Part shown: one piece after another, positions 33,037 to 60,450 of the stretch | How positions within the stretch are numbered: the first letter of the stretch is position 1 | Layout: every line of letters starts with the position of its first letter | DNA from: Mobula birostris | Taxonomy: Eukaryota | NCBI RefSeq assembly: GCF_030028105.1 | Contig: NC_092380.1 | Location: forward strand, 69,995,717-70,059,716 | DNA: 64,000 bases | Direction of reading: 5' to 3' | The notes under the pieces: generated by a model | Database searches by the model: none | Told to the model about the DNA's origin: nothing | What the model saw: the letters and a program-made list of their open reading frames with translations, nothing else | Position numbers and translations under genes: made by a program

Positions 33037-33344
33037 TTAAATCTGTAATGTGAATGTCTTTTCTACAATATCATCGGACGGTGCATGTCGAATTTCACAA
33101 ATATAATTTTTTGAATCTCCTGTTACGACAATTGGCAGTTCTGTAATTGTGGAGTACAGTCCATTTTCATTCATTTCCGGTACTTCTACCACTTGCTGAT
33201 CCTTCAATGTCTTTGATCCTTGTGTCCACACTACATCTATATCCACTGGGCAAAAGTGTTCAATCCTGCAAGTAAGAGTGGCATTTCCACCCATTTTCGG
33301 CTGAACAGGAGTACACTTGATTTCTGATACTTCAGGAGGCACAG
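33037..33344 (-). CDS. NCR3LG1: B7-H6-like exon 10: post-TM IgC1-type domain 6, ending at the stop codon
   Basis: atttccatag|CTGTGCC...ATTTAA. AVPPEVSEIKC...LTCRIEHFCP...VW...NGLYST...YICEIRH...TFTLQI*. Exons 1-10 total 2898 nt = 965 aa plus stop. Confidence 0.87.
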
Positions 33345-33415
33345 CTATGGAAATAAGACACAAATATGGAATACAATTAACTGTTCAATAGCTTCATTAA
33401 TAAGCAGCTAAAATA

Positions 33416-34252
33416 CAGTGGATTCTTGTTAATTGGGCCAACAGTTAATTGGGGCAGCCACATATTTGGGACAAATCTTAAAGAATAAAAAGTAAATCCG
33501 GAAAATAACCGGGATTCCCTTCATTAACTTGGGACACTATGCTGCTTAACTGGGGCAGGAGACTATTGCTGGACAGTGTCTAAATAATGTCAATCGCGTG
33601 CACTGAGTGACCTTTAAACATTACACTGTGCTTAGAGTAAACAGGTTTTAAGTAGAATCAGTTATATATTCTTGTGTTCAAAAAGCGGTGATTTTTGGCA
33701 CTCATAGTCAACAAGAAATAACCAGCAAAACACTCAGAACTGTTTTGCTCACTGTGGTTTCAAGTATTCAGGCTTGGAGATGCCAGAAACAGCTGGGAGT
33801 GAAAATGAAATGATTTCACTTCTTCAACAAGGTACAAATTACAAAGGTATCCACAATCTTCTTGAATGTTACAATGAAAATGAAGATGTGATGGATGCAG
33901 TTATCTAAAGCATTGTAGGAAGGCAATCCATTATCTGCACTAGGTGTCAGTGCTGATTTTGTTCATTTACAGACAATCAAGGGAACATGGCAAATGAATT
34001 CCTCCATTGATAAATATTTGGAATTGATACTCTGTATAGGTATCGAACAACACCTGTACTGTACAGGTGTTGGTAGTATTCTAATTTGTTCTGTATTTCA
34101 TTTAAATACATACATTGTTATTCAGTTAAATGGTAGTTTGTCATTTTTATACTTTGTAACTATTTCCATGAAACTTCAGCTAATTGGGGCAGCCGCTTAA
34201 TTGCACCAAAATGTACTGGTCCCAATGTGTCCCAATTAACTGGAATCCATTG
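33416..34252. mobile_element. pogo/Tigger-like MITE with TA target duplication
   Basis: ta|CAGTGGATTCTTGTTAATTGGG ... CCCAATTAACTGGAATCCATTG|ta. Partial copies of the same family at about 26200-26590 and 30490-30780. Confidence 0.78.
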
Positions 34253-34739
34253 TACTTAATTTACATTAAGAAACTGTACAAACAAAATAAATTAGCTGTA
34301 TGCAATATCTACTGAAATGAACAAGTCATTCAGCAACCTCTGGCATTCACAATATATCTGACCAAGAATTTCTTAATGTATATGCAATGATACTCTTTCA
34401 CTTCAAAGTCTGTATTTCTATAGTCTGTGACAATGGAATCTGTACGCAAGCTACAAAATCAGGCTAACTACTAACTACCAAACTTAGAAACTGCCAGCAA
34501 ATCATTAAAAAGTATAGCTAGTTTATAACATCCTCATAAGACTTGAAAGTTTAATTTGAGAAATATTAAGTTTCCAATAAAAATTAATAAAGCAAGTTTT
34601 TTTGTATTTTTCTTCCTTTAGGTACTTCCCTTAATCCAAAATGTACAAATTAATCTGCACAGAGGCTGCCTTATATCTGGAATCTGCTGCCACAGAAGGT
34701 GGTGGAATCAAACAGGCAAGGCAAAGGAGGATTATATGG

Positions 34740-35860
34740 TCATAATGTGTGCATACATAGTCAGTATAGAGAGGCAAAATAGTCGACATGGTTTGTGCAT
34801 AGTAGGTCATGTCTAAACAGTCTTATAGAAATTTTTGAGGCAGTTACCAGGAAATTTGATGAATGAAAGTCAAAGGATGTTGTCAACACATACTTTAGCA
34901 AGACCTTTAACAGGATCCCACATGGAAAGTTGGTCAAGAAGGTTCTGGTAGTAGATGTTTGCCTCTCTGAATGGAGGACTGTGCCTTATGGTGTGCCGCT
35001 GGGTCTGTTGTTGTTCGATATCTATATTAATGTTTTGAATGATAATGTGGGAAACTGGTTCAGCAATCTTACAGATGACACCAAAACTGGGGTGTAGGAA
35101 GGAAGGCTCTTAAGGTTATCAGTGAGATCTGGAACAGCTGAAAAATGGCAAATTGAATTTAATGCAGACAAGTGTGAAGTGCTGCACATTGGGAGGACAA
35201 ACCAGATTAGGACTTGCACAGTGAATGGTAGGGCAATGAGGAATGCAGCAGAACAAAAGAGATTTGGAAATGGCCTTCATAAATAAGTGTATTGAGTACA
35301 AGAGTTGGGATGTTACCATGAAGTTGTATAAGACACTAGTGAGGCCTAATTTGAAGTATTGTGTGCAGTTCTGGTCACCTATCTACAGGAAAGATATTAA
35401 TAAGATTGGAAGATTACAAGGATTTTGCCAAAACATGAGCACCTGAATTATAGAGAAAGGTTAAATAGATTAGGACATCATTCCTTGGAGCGTAGGAGAA
35501 AGAAGAGAGATTTGGTATACAAAATTATGAGGGGCATAGATAGGGCAGGCTTTTATTCCCCACTGAGTTTGGATGAGACTGGAACTAGAGGTCATAGATT
35601 AAAGGTGAAAGTTTAAATATGTACTAGGACCATGGGGAGGCACTCCTTCACTCAGAGGGTGGGGAAAGTATAGAATGGGCTGCCAGCAGAAGTAGTGTAT
35701 CCAGGTTTGATTTCATTATTTAAGATGCTTGGATAAATATATGGATAGGAGGGCGATGGTCCAGGTACAGGTCAATGGGATTAGGCAGAATAATAGTTCA
35801 TACTGACTAAATAGGCCAAAGGGCCTGTTTACGTGCTAAAGTGCTCTTTGACTCTAAAAG
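34740..35860 (+). mobile_element. Degenerate CR1 LINE 3' portion
   Basis: KWQIEFNADKCEVLHIGRTN, LYKTLVRPNLKYCVQFWSP, LNYRERLNRLG remnants. Confidence 0.8.
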
Positions 35861-36243
35861 AATCTGCATGGATGTGGTCAGAAAATGGGCTTACTTGTGT
35901 GCTGTACAACTCCATGACAACAATGATTATTATACTTTCTACACAATATATATTTTTACCCTTTACTGAGCAAATGAATGTGTGTGAAGATTCTTTCATC
36001 AGACTAGGCAGACAACTTCTCTGTTGGTTTTTCTGTTCTTGGTTGTCACAGATCTCCACGTGAAGAGCCTCACATTGGATTAGACATCCAAAGACAAGAA
36101 GTTTCTTCTAAAAACCCATGTACCGTGATGAACAAAAAAAAACATTCTTCTGAACTTTTTGCAAAAATCCTTATCATCTTCAATGGGCTGTTATATGCAA
36201 TTTTAAAAATATTATTAAAACAGCATTTCTGCAATTCACTCAC

Positions 36244-36552
36244 CTTTCAGGGGAAGTTGCATGTGTTTTTTGAATTCATTTTTAGAATGGTCTTTACATA
36301 GAAAGACTAACTCTTTTCCAAAGTCTTCTGCGATCACTACAAAATTAAGGCAACTCTCTATATTGTAAGTTTTCTGAGGGGTACATACAAAATCTGAATT
36401 AGTTACTCCTATTTTCACAGGCTCAGCTCCTTTGTACCACTCAAAAGTAAAATCTTTACTTGGAAGATCATACACCCTATAAGACACAGATAAATGATGA
36501 CCATACAATGGAATCTTTGGCTCAATGTTGAAGTCTGAAAATCTCGGTGCAC
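36244..36552 (-). CDS. NCR3LG1: B7-H6-like exon 9: degenerate post-TM Ig domain 5 (canonical Cys pair absent)
   Basis: ttcattgtag|GTGCACCG...AAAG|gtgagt, 309 nt, phase 1-1. GAPRFSDFNIEP...LSVSYRVYDLP...FEWYKG...TYNIES...LVFLCKDH. Confidence 0.8.
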
Positions 36553-38923
36553 CTACAATGAAAAGAAATCATATTTAATAGCTACAGAAGACTTGATATG
36601 GGCATAATATATTTCCTTGCCTTTTCTTAAGCAATTCTTTGACATTAGGTGTTGGTGACAATGGTAGCAGTTTTGTCTATTTCCACCCATCCTTGAAAAA
36701 CTGAAGAAAAGTATTAATGCTTTCTCATCATGCCGCTACGTAAAAAGGTAACAGAATTTTGACTCCACTATAACTGTCTAAACCAAACTTAGCAACAATT
36801 AGTGTCTCCATTGGGAACACCAGCTATCAGACTACAAGGAAATCCTAGAATTCTGAGATGCCCTGAAGCCTGATGTTAACATATATAATTGCTGGCTTCA
36901 TCACTGGGCACACAACTGACTCAAATAGTGGAATAGTGATGAGGGGCAGGTAAGGTCTAATTCATGTCACATTGGTAATGACACACCCATGGAATCAATT
37001 GAAAGGAATCAACCAGTGGAAAAAGGCAAAGATTGAATCATTCCATTTAATATCAGCGAATGTATACAGTTTACAGCCTGAAATTCTTACTCTTCACAGA
37101 CATCCACAAAACAGAAGAAAACACCAAAAAATGAATGACAGAAAAGTGTTAGAACCACAAAGCCCCCTCCCTCCTAATGGCAGCAGCAAAGCATCAACCC
37201 TCCCCTTCCCCGTCTTCCCACTTGTTTCAGCAGGAAGCATCAGCCCCACCGTCCACCATGCAAGCCCCCAGAGAGACCATGATCTAGAGTTTATCAAAAA
37301 CTACAGTCCATGACCCAGCACTTCGACGTGCCACAGGCTCTCTCTCTCTCTCACCAACAAGGGAGGAAGAGGTATCACTCCTGTCACAGCAAGAGGTCAG
37401 ACTAACAGCTCGCTGTTTCGATGTTGCAGTCCCCAGTGCCGCTTATTCGAGCTCACCCAACTTGAGAACCAGCAGACTCTTCCCCCACCACCCCCCCATC
37501 AAAAGAGAAAGAGAGAGACAGAAAGAGAAAAACAGGCAGAGTCAGACACAGACAGATAGATAGATCACTCAAGTGCAGAAGCCTCCGACAGCCCCGCTGT
37601 CTCTATGTTCTCATCCGTAAAATAAAAATAGACTTAATTTTAGCATAATTATTTGTTAGTATTTTAATATGATTTTTAATGGCCTGCCTTTTTAATTATA
37701 CTCTATTTATAACTGTTCCCTATTTCAGACAAATTTGACATCATTCAAACTGTCATCGGCTGCCAAGATGGCCTGAGATGTCAAGTACTCAAAATCTGAG
37801 ACCCGCGTGCAAAATTAAACCCACTGCCTTCTCTGGACAACAACTGGGTGCAGCCAAGTGGGTCCTACAGGTGGCAAATTTAGACAGCATGGTCCATGTG
37901 AGTGAAAGAAATACATGTTCAAGTCATGTGGCTTCAATATGGTCCCATGCACCTGGTGTGGTCATTTCCAAGCAGTGGAGGTTTAGGAGGTGTAATTAAA
38001 GTATTATCAACACTTTATGTGCATTATTCACATGCGAAGCAGCATTTGCAGGTGGCTAATGATGAAGACAATGGATATTTGTATTGGATGCCTTGCCTGC
38101 AATATCCTGGCTAGTTAGCACAGCACTAATACATCCAGAGAACAATGTTCAATTATACTCCAGACCCAGTCTTGTCAGTGAAGTAGACACCGTATTGAGT
38201 CAGATGTACAAATCACCACCGGATATCCAGCTTCTGATTTGCTCTGGTATGCTATTGTATGTACACGCCCAGTTTGGTTGTTTCTGATCAGTAGTGATTC
38301 CAGGGTATGAATGGTGGGGCAGATTGTCAATGGTCAGTGAACATCAGAAGGAAGTAGTTAGGTCTTTTTCTTCATCTTCAGTGCTTATATGTATTCAATT
38401 TACTCAGACTAAGAGAAAGCAGGAATATAGCATATAGCTGCATATCAACAACTAATTAGGTTTTAATCTTCACAAAAAAACTGAACCATCCCTTTTCAGA
38501 ATGAAAGGAAAGCAAAGGAAGTACAAAATTGGATAATCACAAGTGACCCTCCCCCCATGTTACAGAATTCACCAATTACTGTTCTGAAACCTGAGATTTG
38601 AATTAAAATTTAATCTCAGAATTTACGTGAACAAAATAAGTACTCTTTTCAACTCAAATTTCTTGATGCATGTACAAATAGTGTGGCTATGAATCCTGGA
38701 CGAACATGATATGCACCCTTCCCTAAGAATAGCGACCCTCCTGTACCATCCTCTTCCACCCCCAGCCCCTGTAGAATGGTGGTTGCACATGTGACATTAT
38801 AATACTCAAATAGTTCTCAATTAACATTCTCAGAGCAGGTCTTGCTATAAACTCTGGCTGCTACTCTCAATAAAAATCTTCTTTCAGATACCACACTTCA
38901 ATATACAGAAAATTTTAACTCAC

Positions 38924-39250
38924 CTTTAAGAAACAATTGAAAGCATTGGTTCTGGGGTTTTGCAGACAAATTTGAATGATAAGCTTCAACTCTGAATTCA
39001 GCTTGATGATCAGCAGAGCTTGAAATCAACGTTAATTTGGTGACTTTGTTGTATAAACCATTTTCACTTTTTAATTCTTCATTAATGATTCCATATTTTG
39101 TATTTTCATTTATTCTCACGTTATCTTTGAACCAATCAATTTGAATTTCCTCTGGATAAAACTCCTTTATTTCACAGGCCAAGGTCAATGCCTTCCCAAT
39201 TTCAGGGTTGACAGGATCACAGGTAATTTCATTTATTTTGGGCAAACATA
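38924..39250 (-). CDS. NCR3LG1: B7-H6-like exon 8: post-TM IgC1-type domain 4 (F-strand Cys lost)
   Basis: tctttatag|TATGTTTG...AAAG|gtgagt, 327 nt, phase 1-1. LACEIKEFYPEEIQIDWFK...NGLY...FRVEAYH. Confidence 0.88.
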
Positions 39251-39505
39251 CTATAAAGAGAAATAAGAAAAGCTAAAATACAGCTTAAATTTTGTTTGAG
39301 ATAGATGTTCCACAAACTTTTTGGTAACATGTATTTTGAATAGAATTAGTGTTTATAAATTAACAGAATGTCACAGCATGGACTATCAACATTTAGCCAT
39401 CAATTTAAATGTTCACTCAGGTCTCCCGGTATACCAGAAATTGTCACTTAATATTAACTCCGCAAAGAATGAGAAGTAGTTTCATTCCTTCTTGTTACAT
39501 TTTAA

Positions 39506-41756
39506 CCATAGAACCATAGAAACTACAGCACAGAAACAGGTCTTTTGGCCCTTCTTGGCTGTGCCGAACCATTTTCTGCCTAGTCCCACTGACGTGCACA
39601 CGGACCATATCCCTCCATACACCTCCCATCCATGTATCTGTCCAATTTATTCTTAAATGTTAAAAAAGAACCCGCATTTACCACCTCGTCTGGCTGCTCA
39701 TTCCATACTCCCACCACTCTCTGTGTGAAGAAGCCCCCATTAATGTTCCCTTTAAACTTTTCCCCCCTCACCCTTAACCCATGTCCTCTGGTTTTTTTCT
39801 CCCAATGCCTCAGTGGAAAAAGCCTGCTTGCATTCACTCTATCAATACCCATCATAATTTTATATACCTCTATCAAATCTCCCCTCATTCTTCTACGCTC
39901 CAGGGAATAAAGTCCTAACCTATTCAACCTTTCTCTGTAACTGAGTTTCTCAAGTCCCAGCAACATCCTTGTAAAACTTCTCTGCACTCTTTCAACCTTA
40001 TTTATATTCTTCCTGTAATTTGGTGACCAAAACTGAACACAATACTCCAGATTCGGCCTCACCAATGCCTTATACAACCTCATCATAACATTCCAGCTCT
40101 TATACTCAATACTTTGATTAATAAAGGCCAATGTACCAAAAGCTCTCTTTACGACCCTATCTACCTGTGATGCCACGTTTAGGGAATTTTGTATCTGTAT
40201 TCCCAGATCCCTCTGATCTACTGCACTCCTCAGTGCCTTACCATCAACCCTGTATGTTCTACCTTGGTTTGTCCTTCCAACATGCAATACCTCACATTTG
40301 TCTGTATTAAACTCCATCTGCCATTTTTCAGCCTATTTTTCCAGCTGGTCCAAGTCCCTCTGCAGGCTCTGAAAACCTTCCTCACTGTCTACTACACCTC
40401 CAATCTTTGTATCATCAGCAAATTTGCTGATCCAATTTACCACATTATCATCCAGATCATTGATACAAATGACAAAAAACAATGGACCCAGCACTGATCC
40501 CTGTGGCACACCACTAGTCACAGGCCTCCACTCTGAGAAGCAATTCTCTACTACCACTCTTTGGCTTCTTCCATTGAGCCAATGTCTAATCCAATTTACC
40601 ACCTCTGCATGTATACCTAGCGACTGAATTTTCCTAACTAACCTCCCATGCGGGACCTTGTCAAACGCCTTACTGAAGTCCATGTAGACAATATTCAGTG
40701 CCTTCCCCTCATCCACTTTCCTGGTTACCTCCTCCAAAAACTCCAATAGATTGGCCAAACATGACCTACCACGCACAAAGCCATGTTGACTCTCCCTAAT
40801 TAGTCCCTGTCTATCCAAATGCTTGTAGATTCTGTCTCTTAGTACTCCCTCCAATAACTTACCTACTACCAACGTTAAACTTACTGGCCTATAATTTCCC
40901 GGATTACTTTTCGATCCTTTTTTAAACAACGGAACAACATGAGCCACTCTCCAATCCTCCAGCACCTCACCTGTAGACAGCGACATTTTAAATATTTCTG
41001 CCAGGGCCCCCGCAATTTCAACACTAGTCTCCTTCAAGGTCCGAGGGAACACCCTGTCAGGTCCCGGGGATTTATCCACTTTAATTTTCCTCAAGACAGC
41101 AAGGACCTCCTCCTTTTCGATCTGAACAGTTTCCATGATCTCACTACTTGTTTCCCTTAATTCCATAGACTTCATGCCAGTTTCCTTAGTAAATACAGAC
41201 GCAAAAAACCTATTTAAGATCTCCCCCATTTCCTTTGGTTCCGCACATAGCCGACCACTCTGATCTTCAAGAGAGCCAATTTTATCCCTTACAATCCTTT
41301 TGCTCTTAATATACCTGTAAAAGCTCTTTAGATTATCTTTCACTTTGACTGCCAAGGCAACCTCATGTCTTCTTTTAGCCTTCCTGATTTCTTTCTTAAG
41401 TATTTTCTTGCATTTCTTATACTCCTCAAGCACCTTATTTACTCCCTGTTTCCTATACATGTCATACAACTCCCTCTTCTTCTTTATCAGAGTTGCAATA
41501 TCCCTTGAGAACCAAGGTTTCTTATTCCTATTCACTTTGCCTTTAATCCTGACAGGAACATACAAATTCTGCACTCTCAAAATTTCTCCTTTGAAGGCTT
41601 CCCACCTACCAATCACATCCTTGCCAGAGAACAACCTGTCCCAATCCACGCTTTTTAGATCCTTTCTCATTTCTTCAAATTTGGCCTTCTTCCAGTTAAG
41701 AACCTCAGCCCTAGGACCAGATCTATCCTTGTCCATGATCAAGTTGAAACTAATGT
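39506..41756 (-). mobile_element. Young 5'-truncated CR1 LINE; ORF2 RT region broken by one nonsense codon
   Basis: ORFs 40333-41742 and 39580-40317 are in the same frame, separated by TAG in place of TGG (EK*AEKWQM). Motifs KSPGPD, NYRPVSL, QHGF, YMDFSKAFD, VPQGSVLGP, FADD; (TTCTATGG)n tail. Confidence 0.93.
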
Positions 41757-42482
41757 AATCTTTCTAATCAAAAGCCCCATGAGATGTATTTTACAGATCT
41801 TTTCAAAAAATAACAAGAATTAATCCAGAATGAATGGGTGCACTACCGTAGGGTGGTTATCAAGACTTTGGAACGTTACCTAGCATTATACATCATCAAC
41901 CAGAATTGCATCTTTAAGATTTTCAGAAATAGTTAATGCTCAGTCAGGCGATACATGCTGAATATCATTATTTGTGTTTTTCAGAAATAGGATTTTTAAT
42001 ATTCCTTGTAATTTTATCATTACCCAGTCCACTTTGAAACTGATCAGTAACGTCATTCAGTATTAAGCATTCCTCTTCAATGTAATCTAATTATTTAACA
42101 GCAAGATTATTTTTCCATGGCCAAAGATTCCTACATTGCAAAAGGAACCCGAAATCAAGAGGTACTCCAGAATCTTCAAGAGTCTCTAAGGCATGAAAGA
42201 GGCAAGTAAGTGTAAACAGAGTCCTGGCAAGCAGTCTAGCTATATAATTACATCTACTAATTACACTTACTTATTGTCCTACTGTGTTTAGAGTACTATT
42301 ATGTTCCCAAGTGTGAGGAACTGGAGTATCTACTTTGCTGACTAGACTCATTGTGCAGGAAAAAGGAATGTTGACTGAAAACTGTGTGAATGCAATGTAC
42401 AGAATTAAAACATAGATAACTTATAACAAAAAGCTCTATATTGTTTAAATATAGTAAGTTCATGACAAGAAAATAAACATAC

Positions 42483-42794
42483 CTAAACTTTCAGGAATAT
42501 ATTCCACAAACTTTGGAAATAAAAGGGTCTTGTGATTAACCTGACATCGGTATTTACTCTCTAAGTCCAATAACGTTGGAGTTACTGTGCAAGTAGTGGT
42601 TAATTCATACAATTTGTTGTCAGGATTCTCAATTATTTCAGATGTTTCAAAGTCCATTATCGCCTTCTTATCTTTGAACCACTGGACAGTAATTTCTTTA
42701 GGATAAAATGAATGCACGTTGCAAGAAAGAGTCAACTCTTTGTCTATTCTAGGGTTCACTGGGCCACACAGGATGGGATTAAGTGAAGGAAATG
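42483..42794 (-). CDS. NCR3LG1: B7-H6-like exon 7: post-TM IgC1-type domain 3
   Basis: ttttgcag|CATTTCC...TTAG|gtatgt, 312 nt, phase 1-1. LSCNVHSFYPKEITVQWFK...YRCQVNH. Confidence 0.88.
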
Positions 42795-44023
42795 CTGCAA
42801 AACAGAAATAATTAAAGTTTTTCTAAGTTCATATGTATATTTCATATTCATGATAAACACACTCAGAATTCAAAACATTTTAACTAAAAAGCACAATGTG
42901 CCAGATTATTTTTCAAAATTGTACCAGAGAATCTATAACAGCCACTTGAACTGTGAGATCAGTAATGTGCTTAACAGCACAGTCAAAATATGACACTTTC
43001 AACTGTATTGCTTGTATGTATTATAATGGTACATGGTAATCTTGAATGTAATTCTAAGGACAGGATATCCTAAACTTTAGAAAAAAATGTGATGGTGTTC
43101 AAAAGTGCTTATTAACATAGCTTATACATAGTTCAACCAATAACTAAGCAATCTGAATCTGCTTGTAGTGAGCGGCATTAAATTATATCAGAATAAGTAA
43201 TGAAATAAAACACAAAGAAGGAAGAAATAAACATTCCTGGCATTGCTCCTGCATTTTCTACATTACAATAATTTGTAATGTAGAAAATGCAGGGACAATT
43301 TTGCACATTAATATCCAAGGAATTACAACTGAAAGTAGAGCATACTTAATAATAAAAAAATTAGTTCACTGGAAGGAAGTTAAAGCAGAAAATTCCTGAA
43401 ATCAAAACTTTCACCTGTTCTATCAGCTAGCTCTTGAGACAGAGATGTTAGAACAGAACTATCTCACAAACTACTGTATATTCACTACCAGTATCAAGTA
43501 TTCTTATTTCAGATGTAGAATACACTAGCTGTAGAATACAAAACTAAGGATTTTCCTCATCACAAATCTATAAAATGTGAAATCTGCTTGTGTTTTGTTT
43601 ATAAGGGCTGAATCAGTGGAACTTGAATCATATGGCATAATAAAACACACATACAGAATCATGGAAGATTCAGTTAGATTGACATCACAACTTAGCACTT
43701 TATTATTTCACCATTTGTCTCTCTTAAATATATTCTAAAGGACTGACTGAATGTTCTCCCTTTTTAAAAACATAATAAGAATCCCTTACAAAGAAAGCTT
43801 GAATCACAGGAACACAATTTATAATAACTGGGATTTACAGGGATGCCACAGAGATACAAGTAATAAATGATTAAAGTTGAAAGTATTAGTCAGTAAAAAA
43901 ATACCTCAGTGAAATGTCATTTATTGTCTCTGGCTGAAATATCTCGTAGTAATGTTAACAAAGGATAGATGACTATGCATTTTAACAAAAAGTGTACTAT
44001 CAAGAACTTAGAATCCGAGTTAC

Positions 44024-44380
44024 CTTTTACATCCAGCTTAATACATTTTTCTTCTGGATGTTTCAAACTCACGTGATCCACTTCACAGAAATACTCATCA
44101 CCATCATCTTCTTGTACTGTTGCTTTAAAGGTCAACATGCTGTAGACACTGTAAGTGTTGCCAGGAAAACTAAACTCTTTCACATTATGATAATATCGGC
44201 CAACAGAGGAAGTTACTTCATCTTCGGTGTCCATCAGGAGTGATTTCTCCCCTTTTATGTTTCTATACCATTTGATTACTAAAGGACGGGGCTTGAAAAA
44301 ATTTATTGGACATGTCAGCATCACTAAACTGTTATGCTGCACAACATGAGGTATAATTATGTCGGACAATTTAGGAGCAA
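44024..44380 (-). CDS. NCR3LG1: B7-H6-like exon 6: post-TM IgC1-type domain 2
   Basis: tctctttag|TTGCTCC...AAAG|gtaact, 357 nt, phase 1-1. IAPKLSDI...LTCPINFFKP...WY...TYSVYSML...YFCEVDH. Confidence 0.87.
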
Positions 44381-44589
44381 CTAAAGAGAAAAAGAAAGTA
44401 AAATCAGTTTAACTTGTATATAACCTCTTTCAGAAAATGTTATAGTATATTTATATCAAATTCATAAAATGAAAAGTCATTTACAATACAGAAATTAAAC
44501 TGCACATATACTTCAGGCTTGAAATACTTTCTTTGCAACATGTCTAGTCCCCATCCAATTTTCCCATTCTAATTTATTCTCTATCTTAT

Positions 44590-46000: not shown

Positions 46001-46414
46001 TTCCATCAACACGTAAGCAGATGTGTTTTTCCTCTGTTCCAGTCGGATGCCACACTCTACATATGACTTCTACTCTGTCATCCATTGTTAGATCAGGATA
46101 AACTTCAACAGTGCTAGAAAGGCTGTATGTTCCATCACCATTGTCCTGGAAATTTGGTGTGCGGAGTTTCCAATTAACCAGAGTTTTATTTCCTAGCTCT
46201 ATTTCTTGTATCCTGTTTTTTCCCCAAAAACTTCCTATCATCTGATATCTTTTGAATTCGCCAATTAATTTCTCTCTAGCATCACTTTGTGTCTTCAAAT
46301 ACCACCAAACATGAATCTTATTAGGTCGGAATCCAGACACATGGCAAGTGATCTCTGCAAGTTCTTGGTGTATAATTCGAGCTGGCAACTGAATATCTGA
46401 TAACTTGGGCGGAA
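46001..46414 (-). CDS. NCR3LG1: B7-H6-like exon 5: post-TM IgC1-type domain 1, with a long insertion
   Basis: tctctcag|TTCCGCCC...GGAA|gtaagc, 414 nt, phase 1-1. VPPKLSDI...ITCHVSGFRP...WY...NGDGTYSLSS...VICRVWH. Confidence 0.85.
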
Positions 46415-48390: not shown

Positions 48391-49308
48391 TTGTTCAAAG
48401 TTCTGCTGCAGTTCTAAGGTGTGGAAAAAGCATAAAATATGCCACACAGAAGTGAGGTAACAAAACACAAAATATGAGAAGAGTTCAAAATATGTTTGCT
48501 GTTTTAAAATATACATGTGAAATAAAAATAACGCATCTACTGTACATTCACATTCTGCGGTACAGTTTAGAGACAGCACATTGCACCAGTCTACACAAAG
48601 GTTTTTTTGATGCGTACTTTGTCCAGTTTACATTGGAAGCACTTTGAAACACACTGGTGGCTTTTCCAACTGATCAAAAGGACTGCTCAAAGATCTAAAA
48701 AAACTAAGACTTCCTTGTGCTACCAACAAAATATAAATTCGGCACTAAATAGTAAATTTAAAAACAATGAATCAACATCATTTTCCTCAATGCAGCAGTT
48801 AACAAATTAATTTAACAAATAGCAATTTCCTCAATTAACAATTTAATCCTTAGAATTTCCTTCCCATGTAAGTGTTACTCAATTCACATAAGTTCCAAAA
48901 GAACTAAGCAGTGGTTATTGGTAACCCCGCTGAATCAGTGAAATAAATTAATTGTACAACAATAAAATGCAAAAGCAACAGTGACATTATGCAGCTTTAT
49001 AAAGCAAACTATTAGAGTTCAAGAAAAGATTCTACACAAGAAGTTCATGAAAATTATTCGAACTATGAAATAAACTTACAGTAACATTTCACAATTAATT
49101 TCAATTCAAAGACTAAACATTCACATTTAGTAATACCAAATGAAATAAATGAAAATCTCAAAACTGTAGCAAGTTCTGTGCAGCACTGGTTAACCAGAAA
49201 ATTATAAAATCTAGCATAAAAGCATTGTTTTTATTGTGTCCCATCCCAATAATTTAAGTTTCCTCTGAGTCAGTAACTACAAATTCATTACTGATACACA
49301 GACATTAC

Positions 49309-49425
49309 CTTTGTACATGTACCACATGTAAAGAAAAATTCCTACTCCTATTAGTAATACAGAGATGATAACGCTTGCAGTGACGCTTCCAACTATTGCT
49401 CTTTTGGATATTCGAATTTCTGCTT
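49309..49425 (-). CDS. NCR3LG1: B7-H6-like exon 4: transmembrane segment
   Basis: ttctttttaacag|AAGCAG...TACAAAG|gtaatg, 117 nt, phase 1-1, open. Encodes EAEIRISKRAIVGSVTASVIISVLLIGVGIFLYMWYMYK, with an uncharged hydrophobic run of more than 22 residues at the canonical post-C1 position of B7 proteins. Not in the ORF track. Confidence 0.85.
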
Positions 49426-50542
49426 CTGTTAAAAAGAAGTGCAAAAGAATTTACAAGATAGTCACTTCAAAGTCTTTTCCTAGCAGCTGTAATCTTTTGT
49501 TGAGTATCTAGTCACTAAGGAACAATTTTGAAACATGGAATAATTTAAAGTCCATTAATAAAAGGAAATACCCACAGGAAATAAAGAGAAAGAAAGAAAT
49601 TTTGTTACTTTCTACCTATGATTCAACTGACAACCCAAGAGCATCTTTCCACCATTGCCAACTTCCACAATATTTATGAAAGTGAAAGTATTTTGAAATT
49701 GAGTAAAATTAACTCTGAAGTTACACAATTGTCAAAAAACTTAATGCCTGATTAAAAAGGATAGTGAAGTTATGGGATGGAAGAAGCAACTGTGAGAAAC
49801 TTCCCATAAAATGCACAACACTTTGGCAAAATAACTATCAACAATACACATGTACTTAAATTTACTTGCACCTGCGCAAGAGTTCATGGATACATGTAAG
49901 CATAAAGATCCACCAAAATAATCTGTGTTAATATTCAGTTTAATCAATGCTATAAAAGCCTTTGAAAATTTTACGTGAAAAGAAATTTTCTTTAAAAAAA
50001 AAATCAGACTTGTTTTCCAAGTAAATTTTACAACTACAACTACAACCCCAGCTCCAACCTCATTCTGGTCTCACACATAAAACAGACATTCCATTTCAAG
50101 ATGCCGTGAGACAAATTTACCGGGTGGACAATAGAAAATATTCAAGGTTACTGTCAAAGTCTCCTTGAAAAAAAAATGCAATGGCATTTTCTGGAATCTC
50201 TGCCCACAATTCCCCAAAGTGGAGAAAGAGCATTCTAGGTGGAAATGAGAACCTTGAACCAGAAGATCATATGAAAATCCAATACAAATGATGGCAAAGC
50301 GTATCTTCTCTCCCCCACAGTGGAAAGTACCTATCCATCCCAATAAGGCAACAAATCCCAAGTTGGCTTATCAGTCACCTAATGAGCTACAGAATCAGAG
50401 CCAAGCCAAGACGTCTTGGATCCCAAGAGATGGCCTAAAGCAGACAGCAGCAATCCACCAAGGTTGCTCTCAATGGGAACTTAACTAAAAGTTCCAAACT
50501 TCAAATTTTAATTAAAAAAAAAGCAAGTGTACTACAGCTAAC

Positions 50543-50869
50543 CTTTCAAAGTCACTGCAGCATTCACGGTGTATGGTTCTGCAAAAGTCTTATGTGTCAC
50601 ACGACATCCGAAACTGCTGCCAATGTCTTCTTTCTGAGGTTCAAACCGAACTTCAGCGGTTACTTTGCATGTTCCATCAGGATTTTTGACTGGTGGGGTA
50701 ATGCATAGATCTGTTAACAGTTTTGTTTTACTTTGTGATGGACTTGACTGAAACCATTCCACGTTGCTTTCACAAGGATAATATCCATTCAAATGACAAC
50801 CCAAGAACATCTCGCCACCATTGCCAACTTCCACGACCTCTTTGGAAACAACAGTCACCGTGGGTTGTG
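50543..50869 (-). CDS. NCR3LG1: B7-H6-like exon 3: extracellular IgC1 domain
   Basis: ttacag|CACAACCC...AAAG|gttagc, 327 nt, phase 1-1. GCHLNGYYP...WF...PPVKNPDGT...EDIGSSFGCRVTH resembles the B7-H6 C domain (GFYP, TIKNMDGT, YQCVVRH). Confidence 0.9.
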
Positions 50870-52206
50870 CTGTAACACAAAAATTGTACATTAATCTTAC
50901 AATGGTACTTCAAAGCTACTGTATACAATAAAAATGGCATTGAACTGTAAGGAAATAAGTTGGAAATCAGTGATTACATCAAACATATATGCCTGGATAC
51001 ACACAGACACCATCAACAAATAGTAGAATTGAGAGGCTAAAATCATTATGAAAGACTTAAGTCTGAAGCTGAGAAATGATTTGATAGGACAAGGACAAAA
51101 GAATGAATGGGTTATATAGAAGAACAATGCAGAAGACAGCTTAGAGTAAAACCAGCATCATAGCTATAGCTGGGTCAATAATAATTTGGACACTTAACGG
51201 TAGCCAATTAATCTCCCTACCAGCATACAACTGAGATGTGGGAGGAAACAAGAGCACCTGGAAGGACCTCTTAGTGTCACAGGGAATACGTGCAATTCCG
51301 CAGGATTGAACCCAAGTCACTGTAGCTGTGAGCTGCAGCTCCACTAGATACATGTACCTTTGACAATATAAAATTTCATGACTGCTAATATGCAGGTTTT
51401 TAATCTATTCCAATTGCACAGCAAAAAAAAGGATTTTTTTTAGCACCTAATTCCGTATCATGTAAAGAAGCAGCTAACATTGCACATTTACTCATAGGTT
51501 ACATTATCCTTACTCGAGTTGTGTAATTTCTGAATTCCGCACATCTCTTTGGAAATGCTCCCTTCCATGATTGACACTTTTAATGCAGAATTGACTGACA
51601 CAATAATGAACAGTGCATTATTTGACATATTGTTGCTAATGGAACACATTCTAATGAAACAGCATTAGTCCAAAACATTTGTTGTTTCTCTCTTCATAAA
51701 TGCTGTTTTACTGCTTCAACTTTGCTGTTTTGTGGCAGATTTCCAACATCTATATCATTGCTTTTCCATGACTGAAATCCATGACCACATTGATCATATT
51801 TTATTTTAAACTTGAGTTCATTTGAAATGATGAATGCAAAGATTTTGAACTACTGCAAGTTTGCATTTGAAGTAACTCGATCATTTGCACAAATGTGTTG
51901 TGTAAAGGATCATCAGCATGTGAGACAACATTTACGTTCAGACCATTATGAAAAATGAGATTAGAAAACACAAGCACAAATTATTCTGCAAAATCAAACT
52001 AAGGCATCGGCTGTCTTTCAGTTCATAGCTTCTACCTGATACTATTTCCAATAATTTTTGTCCTTAATTAGGATCGCCAATAAATGTAGAACTTTGCTTT
52101 CATACTCAGGCAAAACATTGTTTCCAAAAATATTTTCACTAAAATACAAACTTACATATAAGATGCCACTGTATAATTTACAGTTATGTGAAATAAATCA
52201 ACTTAC

Positions 52207-52560
52207 CTAAAACTTCAAGCTTCATCATCACGAATTCTTTATAATCTGGTGGAATAACAACCTCACACTTGTACTCTCCACTATGTTTCAATGTAACATT
52301 TCTCAGTAAAAGTGACATGCTTCCATTTTGAATGGCGTTTGCAGACAGCTCAGCTTCTTCCCATTGAGATGTTATGTGCCCATCAGAATACACAAGGATA
52401 TTTACTCTTTCAGTACCCTGACTGAAAACCCATAAGATGCCTAAATTCTTTGGGTTCAATGAGATCCCAGTCAGGTTGGCAATTTCACACTGCAGAAGGC
52501 TATTTTTGTGAAGGATTACTTCCACTGGACCTTTATTCGTTTTCAGCTTCAAATTTCCTT
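52207..52560 (-). CDS. NCR3LG1: B7-H6-like exon 2: IgV domain
   Basis: atag|AAGGAAAT...TTAG|gtaagt, 354 nt, phase 1-1. LNPKNLGILW and GEYKCEVVIPP resemble human B7-H6 LNITSMGITW and GEYRCEVVVTP. Three N-glycan sequons (NLT, NGS, NVT). Confidence 0.9.
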
Positions 52561-52771
52561 CTATAAATTTAAGACAAAATATATAACTGAGTGAATTGGA
52601 CAAAATTGTGCATACATTTATCTTAGCTATTATAGAAAACATTATAGACCATTTATCCAACTATTCCAATATTTTTGTTATGAAATACTTGTTTTCACAT
52701 CATGCCTCAGTCCCCAACTTAACTCTGAGTTCCTTCCCATTGTCACATGCCAGTGATAATAAACCGGATTC

Positions 52772-54775: not shown

Positions 54776-57700
54776 GGGCTGCTGGCTGGGTGTAGTGGAG
54801 GGGTGGAGTATTGGAGAGACGACTGGAGTTCCGCCTGCAGTGTTTTGCTTTGGATTTTTGCTGGTTTTTCGGAAGACGAAGGCAGTTGGCTAAACAACTA
54901 GACTGTGAATGGACGGAGGATGGCAGGAGGAAGTGACAATTTGGGAAGTGAGTTAGAGATGGAAGATGGCGGGAAAGAGGAATGGAGCGTAAAGAGTAAG
55001 AAAAGAAAACAGAGGTATGAGCAGTCAAATTCTGAGGGGTCGAGGATGATCGAAAAAGGATAGCAAAAGAATGGAAAGAAGATTAGATTAAAGCAATTAT
55101 AAAACTGAGCAAATACGGGGCATCTTTCGGGGACTGGAACCTGATTCATGTGACGAAGGTAATTAACAAACTTATAGGCAAAGTCAAAAGAACCAAGGTA
55201 TTACGAAATGGATCGCTATTAGTGATATGTCGGGATAGCGCTCAGCAAGGCAAAGTGATAAGATTAAATAAAATAGATGGCAAAAAGTACCATGCTCAAT
55301 CCTCGACAATAGAAAGTGGACGAGAGGAGTTATTTCAGGGATACCAACAAAAGTTACTATGGATGAGATTAAACAGAATATAAAAGAAGCAAAGATTATT
55401 GAGGCCAAACGTTTGACAGTTACAAGAGAAGGAAAAAAGTATGATAGTTTATCGGTAATGATCAACTTTGATAGTTTATCGGTAATGATCAACTTTGAAG
55501 TGAGATTGCCGACTAAAGTTTATTTAGGGTATATGTGTTATGAAGTCAGAATATATATGCCACCGCCTTTAAGATGTTTTAAATGTCAGAAATTTGGGCA
55601 TATTGCGGCGGTCTGCAAAGGGAAACAAAGATGTGGGAGATGCGCTGGAGAACATGAATACGGGAAGTGAGGCGGGGGCTAGGCTGAAATGTTGCAATTG
55701 TGGCGAGGAATACAGTGCAGCTTATCGAAGGTGCATTATTAGCAAGAAGGCAGCTGAGATACAATATGTTAAAGTAACTCAAGAGATTAGTTACGCTGAG
55801 GCAGTGAAAGGTTTCGCTGAAAAGGAGAAAGTTATTAAGCAAACAAATACAGGGAATAACAGTGAACTGTGAGGGCTGTAATATGATAAATAAGGACACA
55901 CTAACAATGAATAGAAAAGATTTCATACTGCTTATGGTAGATGCAATTAACTGTTCAGTGCAAACAGACAAAAGAACAGAAAAAATTAAAATTATAGTCA
56001 AGTCTGCAGAAAAATATCTTGGTATTACAGGGCTTAGGTGGGAAGCAGTTGAAAAAATGCTGAATGGAGGATCAAACAGATCACAGGCAGGGGAGGTGGG
56101 ATCTTAATGGCAATATATATTTTGCAATGGAATGCAAGGAGTCTTATGGTAAATGGTCAAGATCTTAAAAAAATGTATCAGAACTTAAGGAAAAACCTCA
56201 AGTTTCTATGTATACAAGAAACATGGTTGAAGCCACAATTAGATTTTGTTTTACAAGGATATACAGCAATTAGGAGGGATAGAAGTAATGGCAATGGTGG
56301 AGGAGTAGCAATTATTTATAGCCAGATATAATATAGTCAACACAGGGCAGAAATACGAATCAATAATAATCAAAATATGGATAGGCAGAGAAAACTTGGT
56401 AATAATAAATTATTATAATCCATGTAGAAGACTAAGTAAAGATACATTAAACAAAGTGGGTGGTAGGATGCAAGGGAAAATAATATGGTGTGGGGATTTC
56501 AAAGGACACAGTACACTGTGGGGATGTAAAAATGTGGATGAAAACAGATTAATGATAGAAGAATTTCTCAATGATGAAAAACTGGCATGTATAAATAATG
56601 GAGAAGGTACAAGATATAATATATCCCAAAACACAGAAACTGCAATAGACTTAACATTTATAAGTAGAGAATTAGCAGGAATCAGTACTTGGAATGTATT
56701 AAAACCAACTACAGTAGGAAGTGATCACTATCCCTTACTCACAAGGATTCAGGTTAAAATAGAACAAAATGTAGGATCTAGAGTGTAAAGCTGGAAACTG
56801 AATGGGAGTGGGAGATATTTCAAAAAAGAAGCGAAGTAAGATGCACAAAGATTTTAGATGAAAATATATCAGATATAGAAGAAATGAATGACAAATTGGT
56901 CACAGCAATTATAAATTCGGCAGAAGAAACAATTCCGAAAAGTAAAGGTACAGGAAAGAGGGAAAATGTTCCATGGTGGAACTGTGAATGTAGTAGAAGT
57001 ATAAAAGCAAGAAATAAAGCATTTAAAATGTTAAAAAGACAACATTCAGTAGAAATATTAATACAATATAAAAGAGCACAAGCAGAAGTTCGGAAAACAA
57101 TCAGACAAGCAAAGCAAGCATTTTGGAGACAGTATTGTAACAAAATTGGAAGAGAAACTCAACTGTCCAAAATATGGGGCATGATAAGGGATAAGGAAAG
57201 TGAATGGTATAAGAAGTAGTAAAGAGATCCTGTGCTAAAAAGTAAGGACAAAATGGCAATTAACAATGTAGAAAAAGCAGCAATATTGGCAAAAGCTTTT
57301 GTAAACCTACATAGCTCAGAGAATTTGATGGTCAAGGCTAGACAGCAAAGGGAGAAGAGGCTTAAGCGAAATTCAGGAATGACGGACAAAAGAGCAACAT
57401 CTGAAGAAGTGCTAGATACACTTTTTAGCATAACAGAAATAGAAAGAGCCATTACGAATGCACGGCCAACTTCTTCTGGGAAGGATCAAGTATGGGGTAT
57501 AATGCTGAAGCATTTATCAAGAAGTGCATTTCTAGTTCTACAGAGACTGTTTAATAAAATATGGGAAATAGGTAAACTACCAACTGCATGGAAACATTCT
57601 GTTAGTGTTCCAGTATTAAAACCTGGTAAAGATTCATCAGACCCAACAAATTATAGACCAATTGCACTAACTTCACAGCTAGGTAAACTTATGGAACGAA

Positions 57701-59913
57701 TAATAACTGATAGGCTTACATACTTTCTAGAAAAAAGAAATCTTATTTCTCCCTACCAAAGCAGTTTTCGTAAAGTAAGAACTGCAATGGATTCAATAAT
57801 TAGCTTGGAATCTGAAATTCGGGAGGCTCAAACAAATAAAGAAATGGTCCTGGTGGTATTTTTTGACATAGAAAAGGCATATGATATGCTCTGGAAAGAG
57901 GGAGTGTTAATTAAATTGAAAGAACTAGGGGTGGAAGGAAAATTATATAATTGGGTTCTAGACTTTCTTTTTGGTCGAACAAATCAAGTCAAGGTAGAAA
58001 CAGAATACTCCAGGACATACTTGGTTGAAAATGGAACACCACAAGGTAGTGTCTGCAGTCCATTACAATTTTCCATAGTGATAAATGACATATTTGCACA
58101 AGTTGAACATAGTGTAGGGAAATCCTTATATGCAGATGATGGGGCTTTATGGGTGAGGGGAAGAAATTAAATTTATATACAAAGGAAAATGCAAGATGCA
58201 ATAAATAAAGTGGAAGAGTGGGCAAATAAATGGGGTTTCAAATTGGCTACAAGTAAGTCACGAGTGATATGTTTCTCAAGAAGTCACAAACCAGTTTCCG
58301 TGAAATTATATGAACAAAAATTAGAGCAGGTAAAGGTGATTCGATTCCTTCATTTGTTATTTGATGAGAAACTTACATGGAAAAAAGCAAATCGAGAATA
58401 TTACAAACAAATGTAAAAAAAAAATAACTTATTGAGGGGTCTTGCCCGACAGGACTGGGGTGCGAGCAGTATATCGCTATTAAATATTTATCAAGCCTTA
58501 ATGAGGGCTACATTGGATTATGGAAGTGTAGCATACATGTCAGCTGCAGAAAGTAATTTAAAAATGCTGGATATGTAGTGGTGCATTCAGAACATCACCT
58601 ATATCAGCTCTTCAAGTCGAAATGGGGGAAATGCCATTAAGACTTAGAAGAATAAAGCTAATGCTAAATTACTGGGTTAACATCATGGGACATAACTACT
58701 CACATCCAGCTAAAGCTATATTAAAAGACTCCAGGGAACATGATAAGGCAAGTTATAATAGCTTCGGGGGTGGAGCAGCACAAAAATATGGTCTACAGGA
58801 ATATAGCCCTACAGTTCCAATATCTGATGTTCCTCCATGGCTCTTTACAATGCATACAGGTTTTTATCTGTAAAGAGTCTAACTATGGAATCAAACAGAT
58901 AGCACACGAATATATAGACTTGCATTTTAGAAATGAACTTGTAATATTTATGGATGGATCAAAAGACCCTCGATCTGGCCACACAGGTATTGCAGTCTAC
59001 ATTCCTCAGTGCAAAACTAGTATCAGGAAAAGAACATCAAAACCATTTATCAGTGTATACAACAGAATTAATGGCAATTTTGAGTGCATAATCTTGGATA
59101 GAAGAAAATAATATCAAAAAGGCTGCAACCTGTTCAGACGGTTTATCTGCATTAACCTCAATCAAATCAAGAAAATCAGAAAGTAGACAGGATATTTTAT
59201 GCAAGTTATATACACTGACCAAAAATGGGGTAGAAGTAAGCTTTCTTTGGGTTCCTGCTCATTGTTGAGTGGAGGGTGATGAAAAGGTGGATAATATAGC
59301 TAAACAATCGCTCAAATCGTCTATAATAGAGGTCCAGATCCATCTTAGCAAAGCGTAAGTCAAGAGCAATATCAAAACACGTATTGAGGAGACATGGCAG
59401 AAGCATTGGGAAAGAGTGAAACAGGGAGACAACTGTACAAAATACAGAGGCAAGTTAGATACAAAAGAGTGTCAAGTGGATATAGAAAGACAGAAGTGAT
59501 CATCAGTTGTTTGAGAATTGGACACACTAGTCTTAATTACACATTACACAAAATGGGGAAACATCCAACTGCGTTGTGTGAATACTGTAATCAACCAGAA
59601 ATAGTTGAATATGTATTGATAAAATGTAAGAAGTATCAAAAAGAAAGTGAAGATGATAGGAGCGCTTAAGATAACAAAAAAAAACTGATGTGGGTATAGA
59701 AGACATTTTAAGTGAAAATTCAAGAGAAATCCAGATCTGTATCATGAAGTATCTGAAAGACAGGTTTATTATATAGAATATAATATAGAATAGAATATGC
59801 AATTCTGTTCCCTTCCCGTTTATCCAACGATCGACACTCCAGTCTAGCAGGTGGCGGTAATGCACCTTAAAGCTGGTTTGCCAACCACCATAAAACAACA
59901 CAAGAAGAAGAAG
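54776..59913 (+). mobile_element. Full-length, decayed I/Nimb-like LINE (gag-like ORF1; APE-RT-RNase H ORF2) in intron 1 of the B7-H6-like gene, antisense to it
   Basis: ORF1 from about 54959 with CCHC knuckles (RCFKCQKFGH, CGRCAGEH, CCNC). ORF2 from 56107: ILQWNARSL, CIQETWL, GSDHYP, YRPIALTS, FFDIEKAYD, GTPQGS, YADD, RNase H (FMDGS, FLWVPAH), C-terminal CEYC. (AAG)n tail. Imperfect TSD aactgcgc(a/g)gg(c/t)tg at 54762-54775 and 59914-59927. Many frameshifts. Confidence 0.9.
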
Positions 59914-59919
59914 AACTGC

Positions 59920-60450
59920 GCGGGTTGAAGCGCAGCATAACGAAACACGGTTCTGGGTTCCAGCTCACCGACGCCCCGGCCTCGATTCGATTCGATTCGA
60001 TTCGACTCGGCCCGGCCCAGCCCGGACAAGCACGGCCTGCCAGTCATCTCTCTTCCTTCGGCACTCCCCCCACCCCCCAGCCCAATCCGGTTTTCACCTG
60101 AAAGCGGCACCAGGACCGTCAGCGCGATCACCGCCGACACGATCCACAATGAACTCCCCGTCCAGCCCATGACCGTCGGTCTTCTACCGTCGGCTGGTTA
60201 GCCTTCCTCCCTTCTGCATTCGTTTCACTTTCGCTCCGGAAAGGGCGGGGGAATCTGCGCCCACAGCGAGAACAGCAGAACCTTCCGTTGAAGGGCAAGC
60301 CTTCTCTTCAGAGAGATGGAGACGTCGCCTTTCCGAGAGGAGAGAAAAAGATGCAAAACTTCCTTTCTCAGACACACACACGACCTCCTTTCCTTGGAGA
60401 AAGAGACCTTCATCCCAGAGACCGGGGCAGCTCCTCTCCGAAGACACCGA
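59920..60450. promoter_or_regulatory. CpG island / probable promoter of the B7-H6-like gene
   Basis: CpG-rich block around exon 1, with GC-box-like aagggcgggg near 60241. Boundaries are approximate. Confidence 0.65.
60098..60170 (-). CDS. NCR3LG1: B7-H6-like gene exon 1: signal peptide
   Basis: ATG...MGWTGSSLWIVSAVIALTVLVPLS, then G|gtgaaa donor. 73 nt, phase 1, inside a CpG island; joins exon 2 in frame. Confidence 0.8.

Follow-up and report, generated by a model that had tools for sequence, protein, structure and literature searches.

A B7-H6-like gene of Mobula birostris with six C1-type immunoglobulin domains likely on the cytosolic side of the membrane

C1-set immunoglobulin domains are the hallmark fold of antibodies, T-cell receptors and MHC molecules, and oxidising compartments are assumed to be the place where they function. 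In a 64,000-nucleotide stretch of the Mobula birostris genome (NC_092380.1, positions 69,995,717 to 70,059,716 of the forward strand; hereafter the window), a reading made from the letters alone proposed a B7-H6-like gene of ten canonically spliced exons in one 965-aa frame, ordered as signal peptide, IgV, IgC1, transmembrane segment (TM) and six further IgC1-type domains, with no second TM. The locus thus raised the question of whether a ray relative of B7-H6 places a chain of about 670 aa of Ig domains in the cytosol, and what such a tail might do.

The proposed gene structure was confirmed in full. The ten exons lie on the minus strand at exactly the coordinates first proposed (Table 1), all nine introns are GT..AG and of phase 1, and the joined exons form a 2898-nt frame of 965 aa plus stop, identical to the protein of the public NCBI gene model, which is named just 'uncharacterized'. 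The domain order held as well. A 19-residue Kyte-Doolittle scan of the 965-aa protein gave only two peaks above 2.0, the signal peptide (2.03) and residues 265-283 (2.47), and both hydropathy and the structure model agree, at the sequence level, with a type I layout of signal peptide and single TM. Pfam assigned exon 2 to the V-set and, over the curated cut-off, exon 3 and five of the six post-TM exons to the C1-set. Exon 9 had no Pfam match, was modelled as a beta-sandwich (pLDDT 83-91) and corresponded in alignments to tail domain five of the relatives. Neither introns 4-9 nor the 15 kb beyond the stop yielded another TM-like exon under a search rule that does pick up the true one.

Table 1. 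Features of the six-domain gene and its neighbour in the window.
Feature	Positions	Strand	Evidence
Exon 1: start codon and signal peptide, aa 1-24	60098..60170	-	First in-frame ATG after a stop; hydrophobic peak 2.03
Exon 2: IgV, B7-H6 type, FG loop unlike the NKp30-binding loop	52207..52560	-	Pfam V-set E 1.2e-9; B7-H6 match; on spliced contigs
Exon 3: extracellular C1 domain (C0)	50543..50869	-	Pfam C1-set E 1.4e-10; on spliced contigs
Exon 4: single TM, 117 nt, phase 1-1	49309..49425	-	Hydropathy 2.47; model helix 268-288; 117-letter interval and matching depth on three spliced contigs
Exon 5: predicted tail domain c1, long variable insertion, start about 3 residues past the TM	46001..46414	-	Pfam C1-set E 8.5e-9; on spliced contigs
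Exon 6: predicted tail domain c2	44024..44380	-	Pfam C1-set E 1.6e-9
Exon 7: predicted tail domain c3, both canonical Cys invariant	42483..42794	-	Pfam C1-set E 9e-16
Exon 8: predicted tail domain c4, F-strand Cys lost	38924..39250	-	Pfam C1-set E 3.1e-10
Exon 9: predicted tail domain c5, both canonical Cys replaced	36244..36552	-	No Pfam match; beta-sandwich in model
Exon 10, coding part: predicted tail domain c6 and stop; no free tail beyond the last strand	33037..33344	-	Pfam C1-set E 3.7e-10
Likely poly(A) signal	32813..32818	-	Contig X1/1 extends 208 letters past 33000 and would end about 20 bases after the signal
Neighbour: intronless KCNJ11 (Kir6.2) frame, convergent to the six-domain gene	16468..17610	+	Best solved relatives Kir6.2 E 1e-182, Kir6.1 E 7e-169; Pfam IRK

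The six-domain gene is spliced into one message that includes the TM exon. Spliced contigs from three runs of two studies joined exon 3 to exon 5, and all three held exactly 117 letters, the length of the TM exon, between the two pieces. Contigs X1/1 (3197 nt) and X3/10 (2937 nt) spanned exon 2 to exon 10, and X5/14 exon 2 to exon 5. Depth in the bin with the TM exon was 5.15, 7.28 and 10.4, where 5.2, 6.8 and 10.4 were expected (contig depth x 116/657). Inclusion of the TM exon is deduced from interval length and depth in contigs, which drop rare isoforms; no run is on record as RNA, the run types are guesses, and the spliced form was judged from the contigs themselves. The junctions of the TM exon with exons 3 and 5, which the sequence-only reading had marked for verification, are supported in this way by the 117-letter interval in three contigs. 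A processed retrocopy as the source of the spliced contigs was rejected: among the best 30 candidates scored, exon 6 matched five genome places, all in the gene cluster.

These contigs bear on two other explanations. The reading of the locus as two adjoining genes, or as a gene-model artefact, is already largely refuted and retains hardly any probability. A contig spanning two genes would be no proof of one molecule, and intron 4 does hold one hydrophobic stretch that opens with an ATG, though its donor is poor; however, the spliced contigs run across the junction and leave no space for an extra exon, and the same architecture recurs in 90 proteins and in the next paralogue, whose exon phases are identical. 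It is also very unlikely that the gene mainly yields a secreted protein of eight Ig domains, made by skipping of the TM exon, with extracellular C1 domains. Such skipping would stay in frame since all exons are of phase 1, four public models of relatives (P0026, P0034, P0065, P0073) join C0 to the tail without a TM, c2 and c3 retain both canonical Cys, and the tail has one fairly conserved sequon. Yet the 117 letters stood at the TM position in every spanning contig, the TM exon was present in 16/16 proteins of alignment A4, and in the tail Cys loss is systematic and sequons are not in excess.

Where a signal peptide is cleaved and a single stop-transfer helix comes after it, all downstream sequence stays in the cytosol; by this established membrane biology, everything past the single TM of the ray protein would be cytosolic. 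The cytosolic chain that had been proposed gains support from three indirect, family-wide signs, namely the loss of Ig Cys pairs, no excess of glycosylation sites and a positive-inside charge, and on this comparative evidence the six tail domains likely lie in the cytosol. Among 27 aligned proteins, the Cys pair was kept in 53/54 pre-TM domains and in 62/142 post-TM domains; these family counts, like those that follow, share descent and are therefore not independent. Retention differed along the tail (c1 3/27, c2 24/25, c3 27/27, c4 0/25, c5 4/20, c6 4/18), and the core Trp was kept in c2-c6. The F-strand Cys of c4 was lost in the ray protein and in 25/25 relatives scored; the ray tail as a whole keeps the Trp in 6/6 domains and the Cys pair in 4/6. 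In a set of 90 proteins, selected for one TM (61 of 151 were dropped), the pair was kept in 95/103 domains before the TM and 186/354 after it. Non-canonical Cys numbered 0.77 per 100 residues before the TM and 1.85 after. We infer from these patterns that the tail would fold without need of its disulfides.

The observed/expected ratio of sequons was 1.79 before the TM and 1.10 after, the excess being larger before it in 76/90 proteins. Ser/Thr stood two places behind Asn, Asp and Gln at frequencies of 0.283, 0.237 and 0.184 before the TM and 0.167, 0.192 and 0.180 after, so that past the TM Asn had no lead over Asp or Gln. Among the chondrichthyan orthologues the sequon contrast is weak (1.39 before versus 1.07 after), and 11/14 carry a post-TM sequon at position 445, absent from the ray protein. 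Net charge was -0.5 before the TM and +2.3 after, higher after in 74/90 proteins and lower in 6/90, with a slight bias at the ray protein's own TM. That weak bias, together with the established occurrence of other C1-set domains in oxidising compartments, would suit an inverted or unusual insertion, with the six domains luminal or outside and the V-C1 part elsewhere. We consider this highly improbable in view of the ordinary signal peptide, the V-C0 part with its invariant Cys pairs and its surplus of sequons, the family-wide positive-inside bias, and the superposition of the predicted ectodomain on extracellular human B7-H6 (Foldseek TM-score 0.90, rmsd 2.1 Å).

This structural match and the profile comparison, in which human B7-H6 was closest (E 1e-56) and CD276 next (2e-43), bear out the B7-H6-type ectodomain. 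The whole model gave mostly generic tandem-Ig matches with rmsd above 20 Å, the B7-H6 rows alone being informative, and a titin I65-I70 fragment among the top ones reflects generic tandem-Ig likeness only. The ray protein thus shares with human B7-H6 the V-C1 ectodomain, one TM and a locus by KCNJ11 and NUCB. The NKp30-contact loop of human B7-H6 includes Thr127 (PMC3135353). The Thr127-Pro128-x-Lys130 motif of the FG loop, which holds the main NKp30 contacts, is absent from the ray protein; relative to human B7-H6, Thr127 is replaced and one residue is inserted in the loop in 14/14 orthologues. Four cluster neighbours keep a Thr-Pro-x-Lys/Arg loop, and Thr-Pro occurs in the FG loop of 42/89 family V domains scored. 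Because Thr127 is lost and a residue inserted here while neighbours keep the loop, a role as NKp30 ligand is doubtful for this particular copy. Outside the cell it likely pairs with an NKp30/CD28-like V domain, although the mode of binding probably differs from the human one.

The claimed linkage to KCNJ11 was verified by the convergent frame in the window. Human NCR3LG1 lies between KCNJ11(-ABCC8) and NUCB2; in the ray, a weak ABC-membrane match (E 0.001) lies 0.11 Mb before KCNJ11, and NUCB_N matches, in which NUCB1 and NUCB2 are not told apart, lie 0.83-0.84 Mb beyond the gene. The cluster extends towards this NUCB gene, and the KCNJ11-NUCB interval holds eight V-C gene heads. The gene is therefore one paralogue among several and not 'the' fish orthologue of B7-H6, and the single-orthologue reading was rejected. 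One cluster neighbour carries four identical c4 exons, and the cluster includes a frameshifted copy.

The layout belongs to an old jawed-vertebrate family and is no special trait of this fish. It recurs in sharks, chimaera, coelacanth, lungfish, reedfish and amphibians, and reptiles have it with three tail domains; tails of relatives hold from 1 to more than 10 domains. Each chondrichthyan genome listed has one close full-length counterpart (50-82% identity). Between ray and chimaera, identity was 41-51% in the tail domains and 39-55% in the ectodomain, and c2 is conserved across the family like the extracellular C1 domain (mean pairwise identity 0.36). In a domain tree without outgroup, c1, c2, c3, c5 and c6 each formed one well-supported cross-lineage group, support for c4 being weaker. 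As judged from the sequences, each tail position has been conserved from a time that preceded the divergence of cartilaginous and bony fishes.

We think it rather probable that the gene encodes a single-pass B7-H6-family surface protein, made from one message, whose cytosolic six-C1 tail serves as a docking chain relaying V-domain engagement. The outer V domain would be engaged by an NKp30/CD28-like partner, and the six C1-type domains would form, where a short tail is usual, a folded chain for docking that passes the engagement on to partners inside the cell. Filamin, palladin and titin carry intracellular Ig chains; the signal would run, as in these, through domain surfaces, and from this analogy we infer a scaffold or reverse-signalling role. 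Since the tail has neither a free peptide nor a conserved Tyr motif, any signal would have to pass through domain surfaces. No conserved ITAM, YxxM or ITSM was found in the tail, and the best ITIM-like match, in 6/14 orthologues, sits in a predicted core strand; linear-motif signalling was rejected on these grounds. Domains c2 and c3, being least changed, would be the first candidates for a partner site; a c2-c3 homodimer prediction, in which the alignment was not used, scored 0.00 and says nothing either way.

The same topology, differing from the docking chain in direction only, would allow the cytosolic Ig chain to bind a stress or pathogen cue, or to bait a pathogen protein, and so alter the clustering or display of the ectodomain to a killer cell. 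The butyrophilin B30.2 domain works inside-out on its ectodomain in this way, the start of c1 so close to the TM would couple ectodomain and tail tightly, and paralogues and lineages differ strongly in how many copies and how long a tail they have, like fast-evolving immune clusters. Human B7-H6 is a stress-induced ligand (PMC6514059). We nevertheless regard such a sensor as unlikely: the single close counterpart per chondrichthyan genome listed is unlike an arms-race gene, and no ligand pocket or cue is known. Quite unlikely, too, is a chain that carries no signal and serves mostly to control how the ligand is trafficked, retained or turned over, or is a passive spacer. The lack of a linear signalling motif would fit it, as would the mammalian ligand, which works with an unrelated Gag-like tail (PMC2715080) and hence without an Ig chain; but six positions kept distinct for more than 400 million years, at ectodomain-level conservation, exceed the needs of a spacer.

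The docking-chain reading sets the ray protein beside several known systems. In human B7-H6 the tail resembles Gag and carries ITIM, SH2 and SH3 motifs (PMC2715080), whereas the ray tail of about 675 aa has six C1-type domains and neither the Gag-like tail nor its motifs. Butyrophilins (BTN3A1/BTN2A1) combine a B7-like V-C ectodomain, one TM and a cytosolic B30.2 domain behind a coiled coil; the ray protein shares the ectodomain type, the single TM and, as predicted, a folded cytosolic module, and no exon scanned matched B30.2 (PRY/SPRY) in Pfam. Titin, filamin and palladin/myotilin are soluble proteins of a reducing compartment, and their tandem Ig folds are of the I-set or filamin type. The ray tail would likewise be a row of Ig folds in a reducing compartment, but of the C1-set and on a type I membrane protein; I-set scores arose in 2/6 tail exons only, both under the cut-off and below the C1-set scores. 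The closest solved sequences to the tail are SIRP alpha (profile E 4.5e-36) and Ig heavy-chain C1 domains, which in contrast are extracellular with intact disulfides. Type I 'icIg' proteins with intracytoplasmic Ig domains are reportedly known from bony fish and may share with the ray protein Ig domains on both sides of one TM; they did not turn up in our literature search.

A wider proposal is offered only tentatively. The ancestral jawed-vertebrate B7-H6 may have been a two-way receptor whose cytosolic, disulfide-independent C1 chain sensed or recruited intracellular factors and licensed killer-cell recognition, leaving an overlooked multigene family from sharks to reptiles, with the human Gag-like tail a later replacement. 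A B7-H6-linked family in which up to six or more C1 domains have likely been cytosolic for over 400 million years would show the C1 fold adapting without its disulfide, provide natural models for intrabody design, and raise the question of which inward signals the ancestral NKp30-ligand system gave. Topology and partners can be tested directly with few constructs. Our literature search returned no description of B7-H6-like proteins that carry Ig domains past the TM, and the elephant-shark genome supplement gave 0 matches to B7H6/NKp30 terms; because the most relevant texts and their supplements, which may note such domains, were outside its reach, the novelty of a B7-H6-linked family with post-TM Ig domains is unsure. 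Public databases label proteins of the family 'uncharacterized' or give them misleading names, and reptile and frog relatives are called 'SIRP-like', 'CD276-like' or 'IgG heavy chain-like', the misleading names being due to the C1 likeness of the tail to SIRP alpha and Ig heavy chain.

The ten exons proposed in the sequence-only reading were all present, with GT..AG introns, every one in phase 1, and their joined frame of 965 aa encodes, in order, a signal peptide, an IgV domain (V), a C1 domain, the transmembrane (TM) exon of 39 residues and six further Ig exons (c1 to c6) ending in a stop. Over the curated cut-off, Pfam assigned V-set to exon 2 and C1-set to exons 3, 5, 6, 7, 8, and 10, and gave no match in exon 9. 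AlphaFold2 (30-sequence alignment) modeled eight beta-sandwiches and a single helix at 268-288 with a mean pLDDT of 83.5; the pTM was 0.44, so the relative placing of the domains is not predicted. A public model, "uncharacterized protein [Mobula birostris]", matches the frame identically; hence, the gene structure was already on record, without a name.

Four sequencing runs (X1 and X3 of one study, X5 of another, and X17) were compared with window positions 33000-52700. Spliced contigs crossed the TM position in three of them: X1 record 1 and X3 record 10 span exon 2 to exon 10, and X5 record 14 spans exon 2 to exon 5, while X17 gave short pieces only. In each spanning contig the exon 3-exon 5 interval is exactly 117 letters, and the depth in the TM-exon bin agrees with the contig depth; inclusion of the TM exon is deduced from these two measures, not from rows for the exon or its joints, and contigs hide rare isoforms. 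The proposed junctions are thereby supported, the reading as two separate genes is removed, and constant skipping of the TM exon is unlikely.

The solved structure closest to residues 26-251 is human B7-H6 (NCR3LG1; single-sequence E 5e-19, TM-score 0.90, rmsd 2.1 A), and the profile comparison gave E 1e-56 for it versus 2e-43 for CD276. The convergent KCNJ11 neighbor was confirmed, and exons of NUCB type were located about 0.84 Mb past the gene. Scanning contig C13 between them (69.976-70.900 Mb) revealed eight V-C gene heads, the gene included, all sharing one strand. One neighbor shares its nine post-signal exons and their phases, two have longer, internally duplicated, partly frameshifted tails, one is a frameshifted copy, and in three, one or zero tail domains were found. 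The claimed B7-H6 relationship is supported by ectodomain and KCNJ11 linkage, but the status of sole orthologue is not; the gene is thus a co-orthologue within a B7-H6 cluster.

Features of the locus and the gene cluster (window positions in nt; Mb positions on contig G000:C13)
Feature	Position	Strand	Remarks
B7-H6-like gene	33037..60170	-	
TM exon (exon 4)	49309-49425	-	
TM exon donor read-through	49308-49275		would yield ten-residue tail, then stop; possible short-tailed isoform
Copy of exon 3 part, intron 3	49621-49668		48 bases, 92% alike, ~200 bases before TM exon
LINE-type element, intron 1	55087-59666	+	endonuclease and reverse transcriptase (Pfam); split into several frames
LINE-type element, intron 7	39583-41763	-	endonuclease and reverse transcriptase (Pfam)
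KCNJ11	16468-17610		
Next paralogue (L009-L013)	70.074-70.113 Mb		V-C-TM-c1..c6 exons, all AG/GT, phase 1; of the ~29% identity type, as is Pristis P0017; FG loop likewise without Thr-Pro
Third paralogue (L017-L018)	70.158-70.166 Mb		four identical c4 exons, ~2.5 kb spacing (recent tandem duplication or assembly effect), then several frameshifted c6-like exons
Frameshifted copy of second paralogue	70.231-70.286 Mb		V, outer C1, c1, c2 broken; TM, c4, c6 open
Second NUCB-type locus (L046, L049)	12.596-12.598 Mb		

Human B7-H6 contacts NKp30 mainly via three FG-loop residues, Thr127, Pro128, and Lys130 (PMC3135353). The FG loop of the gene and of 14/14 chondrichthyan orthologues lacks the Thr and is one residue longer, whereas four cluster neighbors retain Thr-Pro, so the gene would be only a candidate NKp30 binder.

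A cleaved signal peptide followed by one TM segment leaves the C-terminal part of a protein in the cytosol. No second TM-like exon was found in introns 4-9 or within 15 kb past the stop; models of four relatives lack a TM. The canonical Cys pair is present in 53/54 pre-TM versus 62/142 post-TM domains (27 rows, excluding three near-duplicates) and, in a set of 90 proteins, in 95/103 versus 186/354 (excluding 6 gapped domains); the frequency of stray cysteines in the tail is more than double that before the TM. The gene's own protein retains the pair in four of six tail domains, and c2 and c3 do so throughout the family. Sequons (N-glycosylation sites) are enriched before the TM (observed/expected 1.79) and not after it (1.10), the small excess there being abolished by an Asp/Gln control; one tail sequon occurs in 11/14 orthologues. 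Charge is higher after the TM than before it in 74/90 proteins. The TM-less models, the retained Cys pairs, and the common tail sequon speak against a cytosolic tail, and the counts come from related sequences and are not independent in that respect. Three independent kinds of sign agree with it, and the tail, as the sequence-only reading had inferred, very probably lies in the cytosol.

The tail starts directly behind the TM and stops on the last strand of c6, and conserved motifs of the ITAM, ITSM, or YxxM type were not found in it; any inward effect would therefore have to pass through folded surfaces. We moderately favor a docking chain: engagement or clustering of the V domain outside the cell would let the cytosolic Ig chain recruit cytosolic partners. 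A butyrophilin-like inside-out sensor would have the same topology and seems improbable, and a trafficking or spacer role, equally compatible with it, slightly more so. The human B7-H6 tail is Gag-like (PMC2715080), which suggests that this module of the protein can be exchanged.

Membrane proteins with cytoplasmic Ig domains ("icIg") have reportedly been found in bony fish. No published description of the V-C1-TM-multi-C1 architecture was found, the likeliest comparative papers lying outside the literature covered; the chances that it has already been noted in print are about even, and most likely its function has not yet been shown there. Passages of PMC13262535 describe paralogue expansion of the NCR3LG1 cluster in turtles and Cladistia and make no mention of tail domains.

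Other vertebrates, sharks to amphibians and reptiles, proved to share the architecture. The profile search (E up to 1e-30) gave 168 representatives, of which 150 were among the matches listed; 149 of these plus P0001 and P0008 made up the 151 proteins examined. Of the 151, 90 combine a V domain with a single TM followed by two or more Ig domains, the other 61 being partial, TM-less, multi-TM, or unrelated. Members given names (20 looked up, plus more) belong to sharks, rays, skate, chimaera, coelacanth, lungfish, reedfish, caecilian, frogs, lizards, and turtles. Birds, mammals, and teleosts are absent among the named members, but most matches remained without a name. In a midpoint-rooted tree of 78 domains and few columns, each tail position groups by itself across lineages (c1, c2, c3, c5, and c6 starred, c4 92/79), and within the c1-c5 groups the caecilian protein P0011 clusters with the gene and its counterpart from chimaera. 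The six-domain tail is thus older than the cartilaginous/bony fish split. Conservation of the tail domains matches that of the ectodomain; the architecture is real, old, and conserved, a variant of the B7-H6 kind.

A second subfamily (P0056, P0187-P0193; lizards, turtles, frogs), which databases label SIRP-like, CD276-like, or IgG-like, has three well-conserved tail domains with Cys pairs largely kept. The horn-shark relative P0036 carries seven near-identical c1 repeats lacking both canonical Cys, and P0044 and other frog proteins have three outer domains and a tail of at least ten.
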